Shown here: positions 17,775 to 59,930 of the stretch, in pieces | How positions within the stretch are numbered: position 1 is the stretch's first letter | Layout: each line of letters begins with the position of its first letter | From: an uncultured SAR86 cluster bacterium | GTDB lineage: Bacteria > Pseudomonadota > Gammaproteobacteria > Magnimaribacterales > D2472 | Reading direction: 5' to 3' | Assembly: GCA_902541365.1 (NCBI GenBank) | Contig: CACBQK010000001.1 | Coordinates: 165,851-229,850 of the forward strand | DNA length: 64,000 nt | Translations under genes and position numbers: made by a program | Notes under the pieces: model-generated | The model's database searches: none | Seen by the model: only the letters and a program-made list of their open reading frames with translations | Told to the model about the DNA's origin: nothing

Positions 17775-18577
17775 TGAAATGTATATCATTTAATATTAAT
17801 AGCGTTCGTGCTCGGCCTCATCAACTCATTCACCTTAGAGATAACCTTGGTCCAGATGTTATAGGCCTTCAAGAAACAAAAGTTGATGATCCTGAATTTC
17901 CCATGGAGGAAATTAATAAAATTGGTTATCACGCAGAGCATTGGGGTGGCAAAGGTCATTATGGTGTTGCGTTACTTAGCAAAGAAAAGCCAATTTTTGT
18001 TCAAAAGGGTTTTCCAGATGATGATGAGGATGAGCAAAAAAGGTTCATACACTGCACTTATAAAATAGGAAAAAAAGAATTTGATATCTTGAATGGTTAT
18101 TTCCCGCAAGGAGAAAATAGAGAGCACCCCACAAAGTTTCCTAAAAAAGTTAAGTATTACAAAGATTTAGAGAAGTACATACAAAATCTTGATAAAGAAA
18201 ATATTATTCTAATGGGTGACTTCAATGTAGCTCCTGAAGATGAGGATATAGGCATTGGTGATGTAAATGCAAAAAGATGGTTAAGAGAGGGAAAATGTGC
18301 TTTTCTTCCTGAAGAGAGAGAAATGTGGTTTAAGATCCTAAACATGGGATTTACTGATAGCTGGAGATCTCAAAATCCTGGAATAAATGATAAATATACT
18401 TGGTTTGATTATAGATCAAGGATGTTTGATCAAGATCCCAAAAGAGGTTTAAGGATTGATCAAATACTCGTATCAGAGTCTCTAAAAAGCTCTATTAAGA
18501 CCACTGGCATGGATTATGATGCTCGTGCCATGGAAAAGCCATCTGATCACTGCCCTATTTGGCTAGAGTTGGCTTAA
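17774..18577 (+). CDS. xthA: exodeoxyribonuclease III
   Basis: 267 aa. SFNINSVRAR, LQETK, MGDFNVAP and C-terminal PSDHCPIW are the EEP/ExoIII catalytic motifs. Confidence 0.9.
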   Translation: MKCISFNINSVRARPHQLIHLRDNLGPDVIGLQETKVDDPEFPMEEINKIGYHAEHWGGKGHYGVALLSKEKPIFVQKGFPDDDEDEQKRFIHCTYKIGKKEFDILNGYFPQGENREHPTKFPKKVKYYKDLEKYIQNLDKENIILMGDFNVAPEDEDIGIGDVNAKRWLREGKCAFLPEEREMWFKILNMGFTDSWRSQNPGINDKYTWFDYRSRMFDQDPKRGLRIDQILVSESLKSSIKTTGMDYDARAMEKPSDHCPIWLELA

Positions 18578-19021
18578 TTAACGCTTTGCTCTGAAAAATC
18601 TTTGAATGATCTCTTTGCATTCACTCTCTAAAATTCCAATCTCATAATGAGTCTTATGATTATGAAATGGCTTATCAAGAAAGTTATCTTGCGAAACTAT
18701 TGATCCTTCTTTTGGTTCCTTAGCTCCGATATAAAGATTATCTATTCTTGAAGCAACAATTGCCTTAGCGCATAAGTGGCATGGCTCGATAGTTGAATAA
18801 ATATCACACCCAATTAATCTATAATTCTGTTCTTTCTTTGATGCCATGTTAATAGCTTCAATTTCAGCATGGGCAAAGACCGAATTTTTTTCTATTGTTC
18901 TATTTTGACCATATCCAATAATTTCATTGTTTTTCACCACAACTGCGCCTATTGGAACTTCATCTTTTTCGAAAGCTATCTTAGCCCTTATTAGAGCTTC
19001 TTTCATAAATAGTTCTTTCAT
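18578..19021 (-). CDS. tadA: tRNA-specific adenosine deaminase
   Basis: 147 aa. Zinc motifs HAEIEAI and PCHLCAKAI. N-terminus MKEALIRAKIAFEKDEVPIGAVVV. Confidence 0.85.
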   Translation of the reverse strand: MKELFMKEALIRAKIAFEKDEVPIGAVVVKNNEIIGYGQNRTIEKNSVFAHAEIEAINMASKKEQNYRLIGCDIYSTIEPCHLCAKAIVASRIDNLYIGAKEPKEGSIVSQDNFLDKPFHNHKTHYEIGILESECKEIIQRFFRAKR

Positions 19022-20410
19022 TTAATTATTTGAACTAGCAAAAAAGCTTTGAAGCTTTTCTAGTATCTTTTTTTGGGAACCCTCAGCAGTTTCCATCTTA
19101 GAAATAAGTTCCTCATAAGCTTTTGCGGCATCTGGCCATGGACCCTCTTCGTTAAACCTTTTATGTATTAATTCTGAAATATTTTTTTCAATCTTGCTAT
19201 CAATCCTGTCAGGGAAATGAAGGTATAAGATTCTTTTAGCGAATTCTCTATATCTATCATCTTTTATTCTGATAGCAATATTATGTTTCGTTTCAAAATC
19301 TTCAGATTTATGAAATTCTTGAAACAATCTTGAATCGTCAGGTGATGGAAATCCTTCATAAACCTGTTGTTCAATAAAGTCCTTTGCAGGATAAAATGGC
19401 TTATCTATATCTGAACAAGCAGCAACTATTCTCTCTTTAAATTCAAAATTCTCTTTTATCTTTTTAGCCCTTGATACAAGCTCATCCTGAGTTAAGTCAA
19501 ATTTGAAATCAAATTTCTCACCATCGGCCACTGCTTGAGACTTATTTATTGCTAATACTTTAAAAGGTGACTCAGCATTCGGTTTTTCAATATAAGAAAT
19601 GAGTTCATGGTATTCAAGCTCAAGGATATCCTCGATTGGATAAGACAGGTCTAAGAAAATTGCTTTATTTGGAGACTCTGGATTCTGACAAATAAATGTT
19701 AGTGGATATATAAACCTGTATCTCGGGCCCCTTTGCACATAACCAAAATAGTTTCTGGTTGAAAGCATTTCTATGAAACTTGCTTTTGTTGCTTGAAGAA
19801 AAAAATCTTCAACTAAATCAGAATGCTCTGAATAAATGTACTTAATAAGATGCACCATGAATTCACAATCTGTAAGAGCATCGTGAGCATCTGATACATC
19901 AATACCAATTTTTGGAAGAATCTGATCAAGTTTTAGTATTGGTAAATCATAATTATTCATATTGAACTTAATAAAGTCAGGATAGAGATAGGAAACTAAC
20001 AAAATTAAGAAATATAAGTCGCTTCTACCATTTCCATTTGTGTTTGTAATATATGGTGGCAATAGATTCCAATAGAACTGTCTTCTATATAGCTCTTCGT
20101 CAAACTGATGACCGTTGTAGGTTATAAAAATCGACTGTTTATCATCACTCCATTTCTCCCAAGTATCATATATATCTTTCATCATTTGATAATGAGATAT
20201 ATTTGAATCTAGACTTGAAACCTTTTTGTGAACTAAATAAGCGCCAGGTTGAGGAACGACCCACGGTAGTGGCCTAGATTCAATATTCTGAGCATCAATT
20301 CTTTCAAAACTCTCATCTGTTAAGATTGAGGCAGATTGAATTATTTGTATAAAATCTTTTTCCCTTAAGCCTGTGGTTTCAGTATCACTAAAAATGAAGT
20401 TTTTTTGCAT
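19022..20410 (-). CDS. sbcB: exodeoxyribonuclease I
   Basis: 462 aa. DnaQ-type ExoI motif FSDTETTG, YNGHQFDEE and AHDALTDC. The C-terminal part aligns by eye with E. coli SbcB (QVYEGF...DDRYREFAKRILYLHFP). Confidence 0.8.
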   Translation of the reverse strand: MQKNFIFSDTETTGLREKDFIQIIQSASILTDESFERIDAQNIESRPLPWVVPQPGAYLVHKKVSSLDSNISHYQMMKDIYDTWEKWSDDKQSIFITYNGHQFDEELYRRQFYWNLLPPYITNTNGNGRSDLYFLILLVSYLYPDFIKFNMNNYDLPILKLDQILPKIGIDVSDAHDALTDCEFMVHLIKYIYSEHSDLVEDFFLQATKASFIEMLSTRNYFGYVQRGPRYRFIYPLTFICQNPESPNKAIFLDLSYPIEDILELEYHELISYIEKPNAESPFKVLAINKSQAVADGEKFDFKFDLTQDELVSRAKKIKENFEFKERIVAACSDIDKPFYPAKDFIEQQVYEGFPSPDDSRLFQEFHKSEDFETKHNIAIRIKDDRYREFAKRILYLHFPDRIDSKIEKNISELIHKRFNEEGPWPDAAKAYEELISKMETAEGSQKKILEKLQSFFASSNN

Positions 20411-51815: not shown

Positions 51816-53753
51816 TTAATCATTTATTTTCCTAAATCTCACTACCAGGTCATGTAAGTTATTCCTTCTAACAAGTTTTTGTCCAGGATCCTTAGTTAAT
51901 GGTCTCCAACTATAATTAATAAGATCTCCAAATATTGGGATATTAAAATAAATTCCTTTATCAAATGAGCCTTCGCCAAATTGTTCACTTGAAACATCTG
52001 TGGATGTCGCAAAAAAGCCCAAAACTATTCCATTTTTGAATCTTCTAGAGAGATCTAAAGTGGATCCAACATCTCCTGCTAAATACTCACCATATGAAAT
52101 TTTTGCATCAAACGGAATAACGCCATAATTTCTATAATAAAAATTTACATGAGCAGTTGTATTACTATAATCAAGCAGTCCAAAATTAAGTTCATAATCT
52201 CTCTTCCTAGCATTAAATGCCTCAAACCCAATGGCATAATTTCTTTGATTCTCAAACCATAAATACTCAAAGCCTGCACCTACAAACATTTCTTCTAGAA
52301 TACCTGCCGTAAACATCAAGTGATGATTCTTTCTTGGCGTAAGAAAATAATCAAATTGAGCTCGACCAATAACAATATTGTCATCAAAATTATTTAAATA
52401 CTTTTTAACATCTGATCTAACCTGTGCAGGATATGTGTCCTCTGGAGGAATAAAGAGATCATCGAAATTACTCCATAGCGTGTACTTAAGGTTTGATGAA
52501 TAAGTCAAGCTGTCACTAAAAATATACTCATTATCATTTTCTAAGAGAATTGCGCCCTTCAAAAAACCCTCTCGAGCAGCCAAAAAAGGTCTAATCGCCA
52601 GCCTCGTTGATTGATTCCAGCCCCTAACATCTCCCCTTTTAAAGATAACTTTTGCTCCATCCTCAAAAGATTGATCAAAATTCTCAACAGCCTTAAGATT
52701 AACAATCTCATAATTTGTAATTACTTCCTCTTCAATATTATTTTCTGCTTTTGCAGTCATTATTATCTCTTCAATAATATCTAATGAGGGATGGCTAAAT
52801 TGAGTAACTTGGATACCTATCTTTCTATCTTTTTCAACGATCTGCTTAACTCCAATATCATTATTTTGGAGCGTATTCATAAAATTTATATATTTATTTT
52901 CAGTTCTATTTGAATCACTTAAAGTTTTATACTGATGCTTTGAAAAATCTTTTTCTGAATTCTTGTAAGAAAACTTCAAAGAAAAATAATTTCCTCTTTC
53001 AAAAGATAGACCAACAAGGAAATTATTTGAAATACTATAGTCCAACCCAAGACTAAATCCGTCTCTTGAATCGTCAAAACCTATTTTACCAGGGGTATTT
53101 ACAGGATCTCTCTCAAATTTTAATAGCAGATTGTCTCCTAACAAATAAGATAGACCAAAAAGGACCGTAGCCTCTTCATTTGAAAAATATTTTTCGATAT
53201 CTAGGCTCCCTCCAACTCCCAGATCTGGTGATCTGTTTTTAAAGCTATCATCGAAGTAGATTAAAGGATTTTTTAAATCTCTCTTTCCATTTAACTCACC
53301 CCATCCAAGGCCAAAATGAATATCCAAATTATTAATTCCATATGAGGCAATAACATACTCAGAACTGTAATATCCAGTGCCTGCTAGATCATTTATTCCA
53401 ATTGCAACTGCTGGAAAAATTCCCTCTTCTTTCAACCTAATTTTAAAATTAAAACCTTTGTCTTTATAATCTTGATACTCAAAACCTGGATAAGGCATTC
53501 CTTGTATGTTCATATAAAAAACAGATGCCTCTAACCAATTATATGGTGATGCTGTAAAAGTTGCTTTCTGATCAGGTTCGCCATCATAAAGCGTAAAACC
53601 ATATGAGCCCTCATTATAAAATCTTGCTGATGGTATATTTATCAAACCAACTGAGCCGTGATTATTAAATGTATTGGTGTTAAAACTATCTCCATTAATT
53701 TGAAGTGATATAAGTAGAAATACCCAAGCAAAGAGTTTTGAGCAGTCTAACAT
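51816..53753 (-). CDS. yjbH: YjbH/GfcD-family outer-membrane exopolysaccharide protein
   Basis: 645 aa with a signal peptide. GSVGLINIPSARFYNEGSYGF...YNWLEASVFY...FNFKIRLKEEGIFPAVAIGINDLAGTGYYSSEYVIAS aligns by eye with the E. coli YjbH N-terminal region. Confidence 0.75.
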   Translation of the reverse strand: MLDCSKLFAWVFLLISLQINGDSFNTNTFNNHGSVGLINIPSARFYNEGSYGFTLYDGEPDQKATFTASPYNWLEASVFYMNIQGMPYPGFEYQDYKDKGFNFKIRLKEEGIFPAVAIGINDLAGTGYYSSEYVIASYGINNLDIHFGLGWGELNGKRDLKNPLIYFDDSFKNRSPDLGVGGSLDIEKYFSNEEATVLFGLSYLLGDNLLLKFERDPVNTPGKIGFDDSRDGFSLGLDYSISNNFLVGLSFERGNYFSLKFSYKNSEKDFSKHQYKTLSDSNRTENKYINFMNTLQNNDIGVKQIVEKDRKIGIQVTQFSHPSLDIIEEIIMTAKAENNIEEEVITNYEIVNLKAVENFDQSFEDGAKVIFKRGDVRGWNQSTRLAIRPFLAAREGFLKGAILLENDNEYIFSDSLTYSSNLKYTLWSNFDDLFIPPEDTYPAQVRSDVKKYLNNFDDNIVIGRAQFDYFLTPRKNHHLMFTAGILEEMFVGAGFEYLWFENQRNYAIGFEAFNARKRDYELNFGLLDYSNTTAHVNFYYRNYGVIPFDAKISYGEYLAGDVGSTLDLSRRFKNGIVLGFFATSTDVSSEQFGEGSFDKGIYFNIPIFGDLINYSWRPLTKDPGQKLVRRNNLHDLVVRFRKIND

Positions 53754-53759
53754 TTTAGT

Positions 53760-55514
53760 TTAATCTTTAAGAACTGAGATCGAAGCCAGAGAAACACCTA
53801 TATTCCCAAGTATGGAAGCATATGCCTGTGCACTTTGTGTAAAGAAAAATGAGTTATTCATTTTTCTTGGAACATAAATAACAGAGCCTGGGTAGATCTT
53901 AAAGTCAGCACCTTGATTCATAAAAATGTTTCTCTTTACTTTAAATGAAGTCCCATCAGGACTTAGAATATAAACGTTCTTCTTGTCAGCAAATGAATTA
54001 AATCCACCTTTAGCGTCAATATAAAAGTCATATTTCTCATTTTCTGCATATCGGATCGTCCCAGTAGTTGAAACTTCACCAAAAACATAAACTTGATTAG
54101 TAATTTCTGGAATGGTTATAACGTCTCCGTCTTGCAAAATAATATCTATTTCAGGATTATTTCTGAGTTTTTCTATATCAAATTCTGCATTAACTCTTCC
54201 TGATGCTTCTGTATTTTTTAATTCGTTTAACATAAAACTAAAAAAACCGGTAGTATCCTCAGAAGCAGTCAGTCCTGCACTTTGTGTTATCAATGAAGAC
54301 ATCAAAGAGCTATAAACATCATCGATAATTTCTTGATTGATTTCTTTAGTTTTTTGATTTTCGAGCACTCCTGCAAATGGATATGCATTTTTTGTGTAGC
54401 CGCCAGCTCTATTTAGAAGTTCAAGTATACCATCGCCTTCCTGGAGAGTATAAACACCAGGATTTGAAACTGAGCCTTTTATTTCCACTGTCCTAAATGG
54501 ATATCTTCTAATAAAGAATTTATCATTATCCTTGACTGATATAGATGTAAATTGCTCTATATCCTTTATAAGTTTAATAACTATACTTCCATCTTGAACC
54601 CTTTCTCGTTTTATATCTTTTAAGTCTGCTTCAGAAGTTAACCCATTTGCAAAAAAAACTAAATCTGAAAAATTTTCATCATTTTTTAGCTCATAAATAC
54701 CTGGCCTTTTAACAGCCCCTGTAACAGAAGCAATATTGATAGAAGGACTTACAAATACCAAATCACCGGATCTAAGTCTAGAACCAAAACTTGGTTTGCC
54801 GTAAATAAATGTATCATATAGATCAACAACTTCCACAACTTCACCATCTCTTAAAAGCTTAATTTCTCTAAATGATCCAAATTCAGATGGTCCTCCCGAA
54901 ACGCTAAGGGCATGGAAAATATTAGAATTTCCATTCAGAGAGTATGGTCCTGGACTGAAAACATTACCAGCAACAACAACTTGTATATCTCTAACATTTA
55001 CGAGAGTAACAAATGCCTCTACTCCAATATATGAATCCTTAACCTTTTTTTTGATAAGTGATGATGCATCAGCAAGACTTAATCCTGAAATAAATACTTT
55101 ACCAAGTTCTGAAATACTAATTGATCCGTCACGCTCAACTTTCAATTTCTCAATTAGTGAGCGTTGTCCAATTAACTGTATTTCTACAACGTCTCCAAAA
55201 TCTAAAATATACTTTCCATCAAAATTTGGTTCATTTATAGGCATTAAAGTAGTTTGCATCAATTTGAAGACTTCAGTTCCAAAACGAAACACCTCATCTT
55301 CTTCTTCAATATCTTCTTCCTTAGGTATAAATGTAGATTCTCTTCTGTACTGAATCTCTTCATCGGACCTTTTCTTTTCAACCTGATCTAGAAGATCATT
55401 TCTGACATCCTCAGGTAAACTTTCTAAAAATTCTTGATCAAAGTCCTGGGAAAAAGAAAAAATTGGAAAAAACGCAATAATTAATATGAACTTTCTGAAA
55501 ATCTTATACATCAT
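53760..55514 (-). CDS. polysaccharide export protein (Wza/Poly_export + SLBB repeats)
   Basis: 584 aa with a signal peptide. Poly_export-like core YILDFGDVVEIQLIG and several SLBB-like repeats (V.V.G.V..PG.Y.L). Confidence 0.7.
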   Translation of the reverse strand: MMYKIFRKFILIIAFFPIFSFSQDFDQEFLESLPEDVRNDLLDQVEKKRSDEEIQYRRESTFIPKEEDIEEEDEVFRFGTEVFKLMQTTLMPINEPNFDGKYILDFGDVVEIQLIGQRSLIEKLKVERDGSISISELGKVFISGLSLADASSLIKKKVKDSYIGVEAFVTLVNVRDIQVVVAGNVFSPGPYSLNGNSNIFHALSVSGGPSEFGSFREIKLLRDGEVVEVVDLYDTFIYGKPSFGSRLRSGDLVFVSPSINIASVTGAVKRPGIYELKNDENFSDLVFFANGLTSEADLKDIKRERVQDGSIVIKLIKDIEQFTSISVKDNDKFFIRRYPFRTVEIKGSVSNPGVYTLQEGDGILELLNRAGGYTKNAYPFAGVLENQKTKEINQEIIDDVYSSLMSSLITQSAGLTASEDTTGFFSFMLNELKNTEASGRVNAEFDIEKLRNNPEIDIILQDGDVITIPEITNQVYVFGEVSTTGTIRYAENEKYDFYIDAKGGFNSFADKKNVYILSPDGTSFKVKRNIFMNQGADFKIYPGSVIYVPRKMNNSFFFTQSAQAYASILGNIGVSLASISVLKD

Positions 55515-55521
55515 TTTATGC

Positions 55522-57435
55522 TTAGTATCCTGGTACCTCTATTCCTCCAATTTCTAGAGTTGATTTTACTATATATTTTATTTTTTTATCTATTTCATGA
55601 TCCTCTAGGGTCTTTTTTTCTGACTGGAAAACAAAACGAAAAGCTACTTTGATGTTTGAGCTTTTATTATCTTTATAAAAATCAAATGAAAAAACTTCTT
55701 TTAATTCTTCAAAATCCAAGTTTTCAATAAACTCTTCTAATTCAACTATCTTAGATTCTTCTTTAAGAAGGAAAGAGATATCTCTATTCATTAAAGGAAA
55801 CTCAGATATTTTCTTATAAGTTCTTATAGGATCGCCTAGCTTCATCTTATCTAAAATTTTTTCATTAGTATTTACTCTGAGATTATTGAGCTCATATTCA
55901 AAAAAGAAAATCTTGTCTTTAAATTTTGCTTCAATTCTATCTCTATCAATCTCTAGTATTTTATCCGATACATCATCATGAAAAATCTCGTTTAGAATAT
56001 TTTTAAAATAAGGTTTATCAATCTTTTTATTAAATTCCTTGAAGTTCTTCCCCTCTCTTCCAGCAACGATAATCCCTAGCATTCTTTTTTCGACTATCTC
56101 TGAGCTTGTTTTTTCATAAATATTAGAAAATTCAAATAGTTTTATTGACTCTTTTTGCCTTCTCAAATTATAGTCAAGATTAATTAGTAATGACTCTAAA
56201 AGACTTGTTCTTAATGATTTTTTATTTGAGTCTAGGGGATTACTTACTTGGATGCAGCTTTCTGATGTTGAAAAAGAAAAAGGTTGGTTGATAACCTCAG
56301 AAAAGCCATTTCTTACAAAAAAGCTTTCTAAAACTTCTTCTTTTGAAATTTCTTTTTCTTTTTCTTGATGGCTTAGAATAAATTTCTTTTGCGGTATATT
56401 GTCGTATCCAATTACTCTTGCAAGTTCTTCTGCAATATCATTATTTGAAACAATATCATTTCTGTAGCTTGGAACTTTAATTGTTTTGTTGACTGAAAAG
56501 CCTAGCTTATTGAGAGTTGAATCAAACAAATCTTCTCCAATACTCATTCCCAAGATTCCTTCAATCTTATTAATATTTTTATTAATTTCTAGATTTTTGA
56601 ATTCCTGAAGATTATAGGAGTTCATTCCAATATCTTTAATTTCAGCATGATCATCAATAATTTGAATAAACTGCCTTAAAATCTTTTCATGACAATTTGG
56701 ATCAACACCTCTTTCAAATCTATATGATGCATCAGAGTTCAAATTATATTTCGTTGCTTTTCCAAGGATTGCTTCAGGGACAAAATATGCACATTCGATT
56801 AAAACCTTTTTTGTTTCTTTTGAACAGGATGAGCTTACTCCACCCATTATTCCTGATAAGTTTACTATTTCTCCATCACTCTTAAACACAAGATCGCCAC
56901 CTTCAATCTCAATGTCTTGATTAATGACAGTTTTAAAAATTTCTTTTTTATTTGATTTTTCAAGAGTAATGCCACTAGATACGGAATTATAGTCATAACA
57001 ATGGGTTGGCTGCCCTTCTCTATAGAGTAAGAAATTTGATACATCTGTAAAGAGATTTTTTTTATTTATGTTTAAATCTAAGAAATATGATTCAAGATAA
57101 TCTTTATAAAAAGGCTTTATGTTATCTATTTCTAGGTACAAAAAAGAAATATATGGGCATTCATGCTTTGCATTATTTTTAAAATTAAAGTTAAAGTTAT
57201 TAATTGGGCTATCAAAGGTTTTAGTTAACTTTTTCCTATCAAAGAAAACACCTAAGTCTCTTGAGAGGCCACTTAAAGATAAAGCATCACCTCGATTTGG
57301 AGTAAATTCAATATCAATAAAATTATTGCTTATCTCATTTTCATGACCTAATTGGATTAAGCATTCCGAAAAATCATCAATGGTTATTTTATCTTTAAAA
57401 TATTCTTGTAAATGTGGATAAAAAATTTTCATCAA
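55522..57435 (-). CDS. pheT: phenylalanine--tRNA ligase beta subunit, short form (no OB-fold tRNA_bind domain)
   Basis: 637 aa. The B1 N-terminus runs straight into IDIEFTPNRGDALSLSGLSRDLG. B3_4 region (DVSNFLLYREGQPTHCYD), B5, and a C-terminal FDX-ACB domain (FPLMNRDISFLL...). The start overlaps the pheS stop. Confidence 0.85.
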   Translation of the reverse strand: MMKIFYPHLQEYFKDKITIDDFSECLIQLGHENEISNNFIDIEFTPNRGDALSLSGLSRDLGVFFDRKKLTKTFDSPINNFNFNFKNNAKHECPYISFLYLEIDNIKPFYKDYLESYFLDLNINKKNLFTDVSNFLLYREGQPTHCYDYNSVSSGITLEKSNKKEIFKTVINQDIEIEGGDLVFKSDGEIVNLSGIMGGVSSSCSKETKKVLIECAYFVPEAILGKATKYNLNSDASYRFERGVDPNCHEKILRQFIQIIDDHAEIKDIGMNSYNLQEFKNLEINKNINKIEGILGMSIGEDLFDSTLNKLGFSVNKTIKVPSYRNDIVSNNDIAEELARVIGYDNIPQKKFILSHQEKEKEISKEEVLESFFVRNGFSEVINQPFSFSTSESCIQVSNPLDSNKKSLRTSLLESLLINLDYNLRRQKESIKLFEFSNIYEKTSSEIVEKRMLGIIVAGREGKNFKEFNKKIDKPYFKNILNEIFHDDVSDKILEIDRDRIEAKFKDKIFFFEYELNNLRVNTNEKILDKMKLGDPIRTYKKISEFPLMNRDISFLLKEESKIVELEEFIENLDFEELKEVFSFDFYKDNKSSNIKVAFRFVFQSEKKTLEDHEIDKKIKYIVKSTLEIGGIEVPGY

Positions 57436-58154
57436 AACTGAATAAGGAAATCTAGATTACTTTTATAGAAATCTCTAATATCACTTACTCCATATTTAAG
57501 CATTGCAATTCTTTCAACACCCAAGCCAAATGCAAAACCTGAAAAAATATTTGAATCAATATCGCAATTCTCAAGAACAACTGGATTTACAATCCCGCAA
57601 CCAAGAATCTCAAGCCAATCTCCTGAATCAGATAAAATATCAACTTCTGCAGATGGTTCTGTAAAAGGGAAGTATGATGGCCTAAATCTAATAGAAATAT
57701 CATCGCCAAATATTTCTGTCACTATATTTAATATAAGATCTTTTAACTCTCCAAAACTCACATTCTTACAAATGTGGATTCCCTCTATTTGATGGAACAT
57801 AGGCAAATGAGTTGAATCATCATCTTTTCGATATACTTTCCCAGCAGAAATAAAAGAAAATGGTGGTTTTCTAGTTTTCATTGCTCTGATCTGGACTGGA
57901 GATGTATGAGTTCTTAATAAATGATTTTTGCTATTTACATAGAATGTATCATGCATTTGCCTAGCAGGATGAGTTTTTTTAATATTCAAAAGGTCAAAAT
58001 TATATTCTTCTGTTTCTATTTCTGGTCCATCAATTATTTCAAAACCCAATCCAGATAAGAATACTGAAATTGAATCTTTGATTTGATTTATAGGATGGAG
58101 TGAGCCCAATTCACTCAAGATACTTGGCTCAAAGATATTATCTTTTGGAGGCAT
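57432..58154 (-). CDS. pheS: phenylalanine--tRNA ligase alpha subunit, short form (catalytic core only)
   Basis: 240 aa. THPARQMHDTFYV, FRPSYFPFTEPSAEVDI and GFAFGLGVERIAML are the class II motifs. An in-frame TAG lies 2 codons upstream of the ATG, so no N-terminal coiled coil can be encoded here. Confidence 0.85.
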   Translation of the reverse strand: MPPKDNIFEPSILSELGSLHPINQIKDSISVFLSGLGFEIIDGPEIETEEYNFDLLNIKKTHPARQMHDTFYVNSKNHLLRTHTSPVQIRAMKTRKPPFSFISAGKVYRKDDDSTHLPMFHQIEGIHICKNVSFGELKDLILNIVTEIFGDDISIRFRPSYFPFTEPSAEVDILSDSGDWLEILGCGIVNPVVLENCDIDSNIFSGFAFGLGVERIAMLKYGVSDIRDFYKSNLDFLIQF

Positions 58155-58163
58155 TATCTAAGA

Positions 58164-58511
58164 TTATTTAGAACTAGTAATTAATATTTTTTCAAAAACT
58201 TCTTTATCATTGGTTGCAAGCTCAGATAAAATTTTTCTATTTAATTTAATATCATTTCTTTTTAAATTTGCAATAAAGCGTGAATATGAAGTTCCTTGTT
58301 CTGAAACGGCAGCATTTATTCTTGCAATCCATAAATTTCTAAAACTTCTCTTTTTATTCTTTCTGTCTCTAAATGCATACTGAAGAGCCTTTATACGTGA
58401 CTGCTTAGCAGTTTTATAAAGTCTGCTTCTTGCACCATAATGACCTTTTGTTGATTTAAGTATCTTTTGGTGCTTTTTTCTAGCTGTATTTGATTTTGTA
58501 ACTCTTGGCAT
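58164..58511 (-). CDS. rplT: 50S ribosomal protein L20
   Basis: 115 aa. [37 protein letters not shown]...LWIARINAA aligns along its length with E. coli L20. Confidence 0.95.
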
Positions 58512-58512
58512 A

Positions 58513-58710
58513 TCAATTAATTAATTTTTCGGCAACTTTCAGAGTTGTTCCCTTTAACTTATTTAATCCTCTGTTGTGTCTTTTTCTCTTTGTAGGCTGT
58601 TTAGATAAAATATGATTCCTTCCGGCACTCCTGCTTTTTACAGAAGAACCTGTCCTCTTAAATCGCTTTGAAGCACCAGAATGTTTTTTTAATTTATAAC
58701 CCATAAACAA
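58513..58710 (-). CDS. rpmI: 50S ribosomal protein L35
   Basis: 65 aa, basic. [16 protein letters not shown]...[13 protein letters not shown] matches L35. The true start may be the second Met (58704). Confidence 0.9.
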
Positions 58711-58714
58711 TTCA

Positions 58715-59239
58715 TTAGTTTTGTTTAAGAGGAGAAAGGACCATTAACAACTGTCTTCCCTCAAGTGATGGTTCTTGGTCAACTTGAGCAATTTCTGAAA
58801 GATCCTCTTTAATTCTGTTTAATAGATCTAATCCTAAATTACTGTTTAATATCTCTCTACCTCTAAAACGGACGCTAATTTTAGTCTTATTTTTATCAAG
58901 AATAAAGCTTTTAATCTTTTTAAGTTTTATATTGTAATCTCCTGTGTCTGTTGAGGGTCTAAATTTTATTTCTTTTAACACTGTTTTTTTAGATTTAGAC
59001 TTTGAGGAAGAGACGTTTTTTTTCTTAGAAAATAAATGTTTTCCATAATCCATTAATTTGCAAACAACTGGACTTGAATCTAGAGAGGATACTTGTACTA
59101 AATCTAATGACGCTTTTCTCGCTGTGTCTAGCGCCTCTTCAATTGAAACAATACCTTTCTTATCTCCATTTTGATCAATAAGCATGAGTTCAGATGCTCT
59201 TATTCTCTCATTAATAGGTGCGGTAATATTTTTTTTCAA
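58715..59239 (-). CDS. infC: translation initiation factor IF-3
   Basis: [43 protein letters not shown]...[21 protein letters not shown]...[10 protein letters not shown] aligns with E. coli IF3. The track start is TTG. An in-frame ATT lies 15 nt upstream (59254). Confidence 0.9.
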
Positions 59240-59333: not shown

Positions 59334-59930
59334 TCATGGTTGCAAAAAGCTTTCTCTCCACAGATTATCATGGAGGATAAATAATTCTCTTTTGTTAAGA
59401 CGATTCTTTTCACCAGTCCAAAATTCAAAAGAGTAAGGAATAAAATCATACCCTCCCCAATATTCAGGTCTTTTATCTAAGTTACCTTTATTAAGTGAAT
59501 TATTATAATTTTTTTTTACAAGATCATATGAGGATATTTCTTCAGACTGTTTTGAAGAAATTGCTAGTGCATTCTTTTCAGTTGACCTACTTTTAAAATG
59601 ATTATCTGAAAACATTTCATCTGATTTTTCTATATCTGCTTTTATTCTAATTTGGAGATTTATTTTGTTCCAATAGAAAAGCGCTGAGATTTGCTTATGT
59701 TTTTCAAATTCAATTGCTTTTGGAGAATTATAATTAGTGAAAAAAGTCCATCTATTTGAATCAATATATTTTAGATTTACAAATCTTGAATTAACCGTTT
59801 TTGATGAACTGCAGTATGATGAAATTGCTACAGATTCAACATGACTCTGATCTACATTAATTGCTTCTTTGTAATACTTGTAGAACTTAAGATATGGTTT
59901 ATCTTTAAGCTTTTTTAGAATCTTAATCAT
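59334..59930 (-). CDS. pdxH: pyridoxamine 5'-phosphate oxidase
   Basis: 198 aa. FFTNYNSPKAIEF, LQIRIKADIEK, HFKSRS, PEYWGGYDFIPYSFEFWTGEKNRLNKRELF match the PdxH pattern. Confidence 0.8.
   Translation of the reverse strand: MIKILKKLKDKPYLKFYKYYKEAINVDQSHVESVAISSYCSSSKTVNSRFVNLKYIDSNRWTFFTNYNSPKAIEFEKHKQISALFYWNKINLQIRIKADIEKSDEMFSDNHFKSRSTEKNALAISSKQSEEISSYDLVKKNYNNSLNKGNLDKRPEYWGGYDFIPYSFEFWTGEKNRLNKRELFILHDNLWRESFLQP

Follow-up and report, generated by a model that had tools for sequence, protein, structure and literature searches.

Phenylalanyl-tRNA synthetase genes without the coiled-coil and B2 domains in the marine SAR86 cluster

No class II synthetase is more elaborate than phenylalanyl-tRNA synthetase (PheRS), whose accessory domains are generally regarded as a fixed part of the bacterial enzyme. 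The B2 domain of the beta subunit (PheT) reportedly makes no contact with transfer RNA (tRNA) in the Thermus thermophilus complex. B2 is a peripheral, EMAP II-like OB-fold of the beta subunit (PMC3275996; PMC8136816), and the tRNA contacts in the Mycobacterium tuberculosis complex are mostly made by the N-terminal helical domain of the alpha subunit (PheS) and the C-terminal anticodon domain of the beta subunit (PMC8136816). The coiled coil of PheS becomes ordered only upon tRNA binding (PMC8599791). The monomeric mitochondrial PheRS, which consists only of a catalytic module and a B8 domain, is fully active (PMC3275996), and charging without a clamp on the tRNA elbow and without B2 therefore has a precedent. 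The present analysis concerns the pheS and pheT genes in a stretch of 64,000 nucleotides (nt) from an uncultured SAR86 cluster bacterium (contig CACBQK010000001.1, positions 165,851 to 229,850), hereafter the window. Literature searches found no paper on the SAR86 PheRS or describing its reduction.

Domain content of PheS and PheT

An earlier reading of the window, made from its letters and open reading frames (ORFs) without database searches (hereafter the original prediction), had proposed either a minimised (alpha-beta)2 enzyme or an enzyme whose missing pieces are supplied in trans. The evidence favours the former, and pheS and pheT are likely to be the working genes of a minimised bacterial-type (alpha-beta)2 PheRS that would have lost its domains stepwise during genome streamlining. 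The two genes and their parts were located as follows (window coordinates; aa, amino acids).

57432..58154, minus strand: pheS, 240 aa, consisting only of the class II catalytic core (ORF, Pfam, NCBIfam, PDB match, alignment)
57435..58112, minus strand: tRNA-synt_2d core of PheS, residues 15-240 (Pfam PF01409, E 2.6e-93)
55522..57432, minus strand: pheT, 636 aa from its ATG, beta subunit without the B2 OB-fold (ORF, Pfam, NCBIfam, alignment, AlphaFold2, Foldseek)
57235..57432, minus strand: contiguous B1, PheT residues 1-66 (alignment, weak Pfam PhetRS_B1 match, predicted local distance difference test (pLDDT))
near 57339/57340, minus strand: B2 deletion junction, PheT residues 31/32 (gap equal to E. 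coli residues 32-150)
56644..57087, minus strand: B3/4 editing domain of PheT (Pfam PF03483, E 4.8e-38)
56404..56577, minus strand: B5 of PheT (Pfam PF03484, E 1.5e-12)
55978..56367, minus strand: catalytic-like module (B6/B7) of PheT, 29 residues shorter (Pfam PF17759, model positions 13-155 of 214 only)
55561..55806, minus strand: B8 of PheT, a ferredoxin-fold anticodon-binding domain (FDX-ACB; Pfam PF03147, E 1.4e-16)

The PheS coiled coil and the PheT B2 OB-fold were truly absent, as the original prediction had claimed and as Pfam, NCBIfam, the alignment and a positive control agreed. Phe_tRNA-synt_N (PF02912) had no Pfam match in PheS of the window and of the related SAR86 locus L031, and was detected at the same settings in a second group of SAR86 loci (group 2, see below) and in a control pair (locus L038; PheS of 329 aa, PheT of 808 aa), in which its E value was 2.8e-20. 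Similarly, tRNA_bind (PF01588) had no Pfam match in PheT of the window, L031, or the two group-2 loci that were scanned (L039 and L079), compared with an E value of 2.1e-18 in the control.

The window PheS started approximately five residues ahead of the D-x-x-L-P linker that leads into the catalytic domain, and the missing part corresponded in the alignment to approximately residues 1-86 of the E. coli protein, or about 86 residues. The best PDB match was Acinetobacter baumannii PheS (6P8T, E 8e-88, chain residues 104-329), with PheS residue 14 placed at A. baumannii residue 104. The NCBIfam pheS model (TIGR00468) scored 297 bits, which is above its cut-off of 237.45, over model positions 66-322 of 324. 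The THPAR motif occupied residues 61-65. A total of 141 PheS positions, including class II motifs 2 and 3, were invariant in 12 sequences from the SAR86 loci closest to the window (group 1, see below), and motif 2 (R158-P-S-x-F-P-F-T-x-P-S-x-E) and motif 3 (G206-x-A-F-G-x-G-x-x-R) were invariant out to E. coli. The AlphaFold2 model of PheS, which was built from a shallow 12-sequence alignment, was of moderate quality (pLDDT 69) and gave no information beyond that from the sequence matches; the low confidence at residues 1-19 is consistent with a leftover linker.

The genes upstream of pheS were located as follows.

58155..58163, minus strand: rplT-pheS spacer, 9 nt, tcttagata, with an in-frame TAG (sequence)
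58164..58511, minus strand: rplT (ribosomal protein L20), 115 aa, directly abutting pheS (Pfam Ribosomal_L20, E 2.9e-41)
58513..58710, minus strand: rpmI (ribosomal protein L35), 65 aa (ORF; Ribosomal_L35p in equal gene order at related loci)
58715..59239, minus strand: infC (IF-3), 174 aa, at the head of the conserved infC-rpmI-rplT-pheS-pheT block (Pfam IF3_N and IF3_C; ORF)

Together with pheS and pheT these genes formed a five-gene block on the minus strand at window positions 55522-59239, and the G+C content of the region was approximately 30%. The rplT stop was a TAA at 58166-58164, and the TAG in the 9-nt spacer was in frame with pheS, two codons 5' of its ATG at 58154; a longer PheS is therefore not encodable at this locus, which bears out the original prediction. 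Read-through of the rplT stop codon into pheS was also considered as a source of an N-terminal extension and was rejected: rplT and pheS share a reading frame in the window, but two stops lie between them, and the frame was not conserved in relatives with spacers of -4 to 16 nt. The start of pheT allowed two options, namely a TTG at 57435, from which the ORF list and the original prediction had derived 637 aa, and an ATG at 57432. The latter, which overlaps the TGA of pheS by one base, gives 636 aa and is preferred because its product begins with MKI as in all homologues. The E. coli genes that were fetched as references confirmed the lengths of 327 aa for PheS and 795 aa for PheT cited in the original prediction.

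The absence of B2 appeared in the multiple alignment as a single clean in-frame gap of 119 residues (E. coli PheT residues 32-150); the missing OB-fold insert, put at roughly 110 aa in the original prediction, was thus confirmed. At the junction of the window PheT, GHE joins NEISNNFIDIEFTPNRGD directly, and residues 34-35 align with positions 152-153 in the beta chains of A. baumannii and E. coli. The AlphaFold2 model of PheT was confident (mean pLDDT 87.3), with residues 1-40 at 93-95 and residues 41-66 at 83-93 forming a compact B1, and its best Foldseek matches were bacterial PheRS beta chains (E 7e-47). The weak match of SAR86 PheT to the Pfam PhetRS_B1 model, which presumably was derived from archaeal/eukaryotic-type beta subunits, reflects a contiguous B1 that lacks the OB-fold insert. 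A second gap relative to E. coli PheT removed 29 residues of the catalytic-like module (residues 630-658), with its junction after PheT residue 488 (window 55966-55971), and three further gaps comprised 5-7 residues each. In the linker before B8, PheT residues 523-535 (55828-55866) formed a 13-residue insert that was modelled with low confidence.

Residues N254, H265, G318, E334, T354, and A356 of E. coli PheT are taken here to be editing-site residues. Their equivalents were conserved in the alignment except for T354, which was replaced by Ser, and proofreading is probably retained in the window PheT. The B8 domain kept the FP..RD-x-S motif (FP..RDIS in the window) and the FD-x-Y motif (FDFY), both aligned to PDB beta chains. 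These motifs match residues of the M. tuberculosis complex, Asp/Ser and Asp/aromatic, by which A35/A36 and G34 are read (PMC8136816).

Distribution across SAR86 and order of the losses

Relatives of both proteins were collected from 5.8 billion proteins, and the best 120 of each were considered. The PheS relatives were 237-248 aa in length with 72-99% identity, and the PheT relatives were 631-648 aa with 45-99% identity; both sets came from ENA, JGI, NCBI, and Tara. The exact window PheS sequence was present on a 230-kb NCBI contig, and its 90% cluster contained 28 members from several sources that were flagged as complete genes. The best 80 loci of a genome scan with one genome per species were also considered. 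Group 1 comprised the 32 closest loci, nearly all from the SAR86 cluster, including SAR86B, SCGC AAA076-P13, and the complete 1.0-Mb genome of TMED112-A1. PheS was 238-241 aa long in all 32, and PheT was 632-646 aa long in the 29 whose pheT is complete. Group 2 comprised eight SAR86-type loci (L039, L040, L043, L046, L054, L060, L062, and L079). The remaining loci among the 80, from Rickettsiales, Aquificae, and other Proteobacteria, encoded a PheS of 329-398 aa and, where complete, a PheT of 790-871 aa. In those group-1 loci with upstream sequence (31 of 32), rplT ended -4 to 16 nt from the start of pheS, and there is therefore no missing N-terminal exon; across all 39 SAR86 loci with upstream sequence present, this distance was at most 16 nt.

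The truncated forms are not artefacts. Some public SAR86 assemblies are rich in frameshifts that give false short ORFs, and short genes could in principle have arisen from misassembly, frameshift, or a wrong start call. However, 32 independent genomes and over 100 metagenome proteins shared these lengths and junctions, rplT abutted pheS in every locus with upstream sequence, an in-frame stop preceded pheS, and the B2 gap was clean and in frame, so that such an origin is vanishingly improbable. Sister genomes thus showed the same short forms, which answers the reservation about assembly or frameshift errors that had accompanied the original prediction.

The comparison of the two groups revealed the order of the losses. 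The PheS of group 2 was 323-327 aa long and contained Phe_tRNA-synt_N, and its PheT was 666-673 aa long in the five loci with a complete pheT. The group-2 PheT aligned from residue 1 and showed the boundaries of the B2 gap found in group 1, with G-x-E joined to x-E-I/V/L. The original prediction that both domains had been lost together was therefore wrong: group 2 combines the identical B2 deletion with a full-length PheS, and the loss of B2 thus preceded that of the coiled coil. The truncations it had proposed to look for across the clade were found in 32 SAR86 genomes, with the loss of the coiled coil limited to group 1 and the loss of B2 present in both groups. The trim of 29 residues from the catalytic-like module is narrower than the other losses; among the aligned sequences, it was found in the window and L003, and not in L031 and L032. 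The group-2 PheRS is an evolutionary intermediate. The simplest history would begin with a single precise excision that removed the B2 OB-fold from within B1 in a common ancestor of both SAR86 groups, followed later by the loss of the alpha coiled coil in the main clade of SAR86 and finally by the trim of the catalytic-like module in the lineage of the window PheT and L003.

Probable function and alternative explanations

The analysis showed which domains are present and that this set is conserved throughout the clade, in which order the losses occurred, and that the catalytic and editing residues are conserved. On the evidence of the sequences, pheS and pheT are under purifying selection. The encoded subunits would be enzymatically active and assemble as (alpha-beta)2, presumably as the sole PheRS of the genome. 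Phenylalanine activation and tRNA-Phe charging would still take place in the alpha catalytic core, the GAA anticodon would still be read by B8, and proofreading would still reside in B3/4. The tRNA would be held at its two ends only, with the D-loop/T-loop elbow left unclamped, as in the monomeric mitochondrial PheRS.

Several points weigh against such a minimised enzyme. Deletion of the coiled coil in T. thermophilus PheRS reportedly abolishes aminoacylation, and no open-access report of this experiment was found. The coiled coil contacts G19/U20 and C56/G57 of the tRNA (PMC8136816) and has been called critical for the interaction with tRNA (PMC7948948). Because it contacts the tRNA elbow and is called critical, activity without it is not self-evident. 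The original prediction had described the coiled coil and B2 alike as recognised tRNA-contact modules, which is overstated for B2, since the contacts lie mostly elsewhere (PMC8136816). The NCBIfam model for bacterial PheT (TIGR00472 pheT_bact) scored 367.1 bits, below its cut-off of 402.65, over model positions 155-788 of 798. This shortfall is due to the missing B2; equivalog-based annotation would not name the window PheT from TIGR00472 alone, and curated pheT models under-score such proteins. The C-terminus of PheT also differed. E. coli and group-2 SAR86 end in a conserved ..LR(D/K), whereas the window PheT ended in ..IEVPGY and those of L031 and L032, which were the most divergent of the group-1 sequences considered, in ..IEGL; none of the three has a basic residue where the conserved Arg lies or close to it, and many other group-1 PheT had a Lys two residues further on. 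The C-terminal Arg of M. tuberculosis PheRS forms a hydrogen bond to the anticodon base G34 (PMC8136816). Anticodon recognition may therefore be altered through the changed C-terminus, although the last PheT strand was left unaligned by HMMER and the difference in the Arg is an observation only.

Stand-alone tRNA_bind proteins exist in many bacteria, and the core described here might be complemented in trans by a separate protein, either a split-off coiled coil or a Trbp111/CsaA-like protein, that supplies the elbow clamp and perhaps the OB-fold. The importance attributed to the contact of the coiled coil with the tRNA elbow (PMC8136816, PMC7948948) speaks for such a partner, as does the scope of the negative searches, which spanned only the 64-kb window and, in 32 genomes, a stretch of approximately 12 kb surrounding the operon, plus one word-indexed database search. 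Hidden Markov models (HMMs) were built from the coiled-coil and B2 segments of full-length relatives and run against all six frames of the window and the 32 group-1 loci (417,348 translated residues from approximately 0.45 Mb). No stand-alone coiled-coil or B2 ORF was found in this DNA with an E value better than 0.75, whereas the controls reached 1e-26 to 1e-53. Likewise, the word-indexed search of the 5.8 billion proteins with a group-2 coiled coil as the query returned only short proteins that were 62-94% identical to group-2 PheS and represent fragments of it. Two of these apparently stand-alone Phe_tRNA-synt_N proteins (L083:5001-5357 and L084:5001-5354) were inspected and rejected as frameshift debris of a group-2 pheS, with adjoining genes also split; short database ORFs annotated as a PheS N-terminal domain can thus be frameshift debris. 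The pheT of the metagenome-assembled genome L002 was broken in a similar way to these pheS fragments (L002:6700-8700). The mitochondrial PheRS requires no partner (PMC3275996). Complementation in trans, the second reading of the original prediction, thus found no support around the operon or in the database search, and it is considered unlikely.

A further alternative is that a second, complete PheRS performs the housekeeping charging, which would make the reduced pair a relic or leave it with a different function. Some PheS-like paralogues are known to have other functions, and the NCBIfam model "PheS-related mystery ligase SrmL" matched the window PheS weakly. On the other hand, the pair occupied the canonical infC-rpmI-rplT-pheS-pheT position, PheS scored above the cut-off of the pheS equivalog (297 vs. 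237 bits), the catalytic and editing residues were invariant across a deep clade, and no group-1 SAR86 assembly occurred twice among the 80 best genome loci. These genomes are also streamlined, with sizes of approximately 1-1.2 Mb as judged from a single complete genome and the longest contig among the matches, which makes two PheRS improbable. A redundant or repurposed copy is therefore very unlikely. A tRNA-Phe gene, sought for a comparison of elbow and identity nucleotides, was absent from the window and from 36 SAR86 loci, in which only genes for tRNA-Pro, tRNA-Cys, and tRNA-Leu were present.

The minimised, working PheRS thus remains the preferred reading. It is tentatively proposed, and regarded as rather unlikely, that recognition of tRNA-Phe was re-wired when the main clade of SAR86 lost the elbow clamp, in the form of either a different binding geometry and identity set or an unrecognised partner protein that took over the role of the coiled coil. 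In the former case, the replacement of the conserved Arg at the B8 C-terminus would hint at an altered reading of G34. If either were true, the SAR86 PheRS would be a distinct functional subtype in one of the most abundant heterotrophs of the ocean.

SAR86 provides a natural deletion series that runs from the full-length enzyme of other bacteria through the loss of B2 and the loss of the coiled coil to a trimmed catalytic-like module, and this series occurs in free-living and very abundant marine bacteria. It demonstrates that a free-living bacterium can do without B2 and suggests that the tRNA-elbow clamp is dispensable as well. The enzymes of groups 2 and 1 form an experimentally tractable pair for measuring the contribution of the coiled coil to tRNA binding, specificity, and editing.

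Gene neighbourhood and comparison with described enzymes

The spacer between rplT and pheS contained no pheM-type leader ORF or attenuator, having a length of 9 nt compared with the 450 nt that hold pheM in E. coli, which agrees with the original prediction that there is no room for such a leader. No Rfam element was found in the operon. Spacers of 6-7 nt also occurred in group-2 SAR86 and in the full-length control, so that the absence of a leader is unrelated to the truncation, and the short junction is a general feature of these small genomes. Downstream, a Wza-like polysaccharide export gene (Poly_export and SLBB) started 8 nt after pheT and was followed by a YjbH-family gene (window 51816-55514), whereas pheT is followed by ihfA in E. 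coli and by a Bac_DNA_binding gene in the group-2 SAR86 locus L083. Upstream of infC, a gene resembling pyridoxamine 5'-phosphate oxidase (window 59334-59930) occupied the position that thrS has in E. coli, and the same neighbour was present in the group-2 loci L083 and L084. In the window as a whole, large ORFs lay mostly on the plus strand up to approximately 18.6 kb and mostly on the minus strand in the remainder up to 64 kb. The maximum of the cumulative GC skew coincided with this convergence point (window about 18500-19100), which could be either a replication terminus or a plain strand switch.

The canonical (alpha-beta)2 PheRS of E. coli (3PCO), A. baumannii (6P8T), and T. thermophilus (1PYS/2IY5) is encoded by the same two-gene operon after rplT. 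It shares with the window enzyme the alpha core, the order B1, B3/4, B5, catalytic-like module, and B8 in the beta subunit, and the editing and catalytic residues. In contrast, the window enzyme lacks the alpha coiled coil, the beta B2, 29 residues of the catalytic-like module, the pheM leader, and the C-terminal basic residue. The group-2 PheRS (e.g., L039, L079, and L046) comes from the same order of bacteria as the window enzyme and has the same operon and B2 deletion boundaries, with an rplT-pheS spacer of 7 nt, but has kept the coiled coil, the full catalytic-like module, and the C-terminal Arg. The archaeal/eukaryotic cytosolic PheRS resembles the SAR86 enzyme in the contiguous B1 of its beta subunit (3L4G), into which no OB-fold is inserted. 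However, its beta subunit has no B8 and its alpha subunit carries three DNA-binding-fold domains, and its beta chains were far weaker Foldseek matches to the PheT model (5.6e-21) than the bacterial chains (7e-47).

Other lineages with a short PheS were sought among 1.84 billion cluster representatives. The best 150 matches were inspected, of which about a dozen were short, and six of these were checked. Three were fragments, as their clusters also held members of 335-340 aa, and two more were fragments on contigs of less than 1.4 kb with GTG starts. The remaining one was genuine (P0320, 249 aa) and was encoded at locus L082, a 4.2-kb contig with 11% G+C in which UGA is read as Trp. The gene order was rpmI-rplT-pheS-pheT, with a pheS (L082:798-1547) whose start overlapped the rplT stop and a pheT (L082:1551-3929) of 792 aa. 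This enzyme resembles that of the window in the lost PheS coiled coil, its pheS starting at the rplT stop. In contrast to the window PheT, its N-terminal alignment suggests that the B2 region was kept, although no tRNA_bind or B3_4 Pfam match was recorded. The organism is an obligate, extreme endosymbiont of the insect type, whereas SAR86 is free-living and planktonic, and its loss of the coiled coil is independent of that in SAR86.

The human mitochondrial PheRS (3CMQ, 3TUP) is similar to the SAR86 enzyme in that it has neither the coiled coil nor B2 and consists of a catalytic module and a B8-type domain (PMC3275996). It is not a close relative, since the window PheS matched it over residues 108-240 only. 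The mitochondrial enzyme is a monomeric fusion without an editing domain, a catalytic-like module, or a beta subunit, whereas the SAR86 enzyme keeps two subunits and editing.

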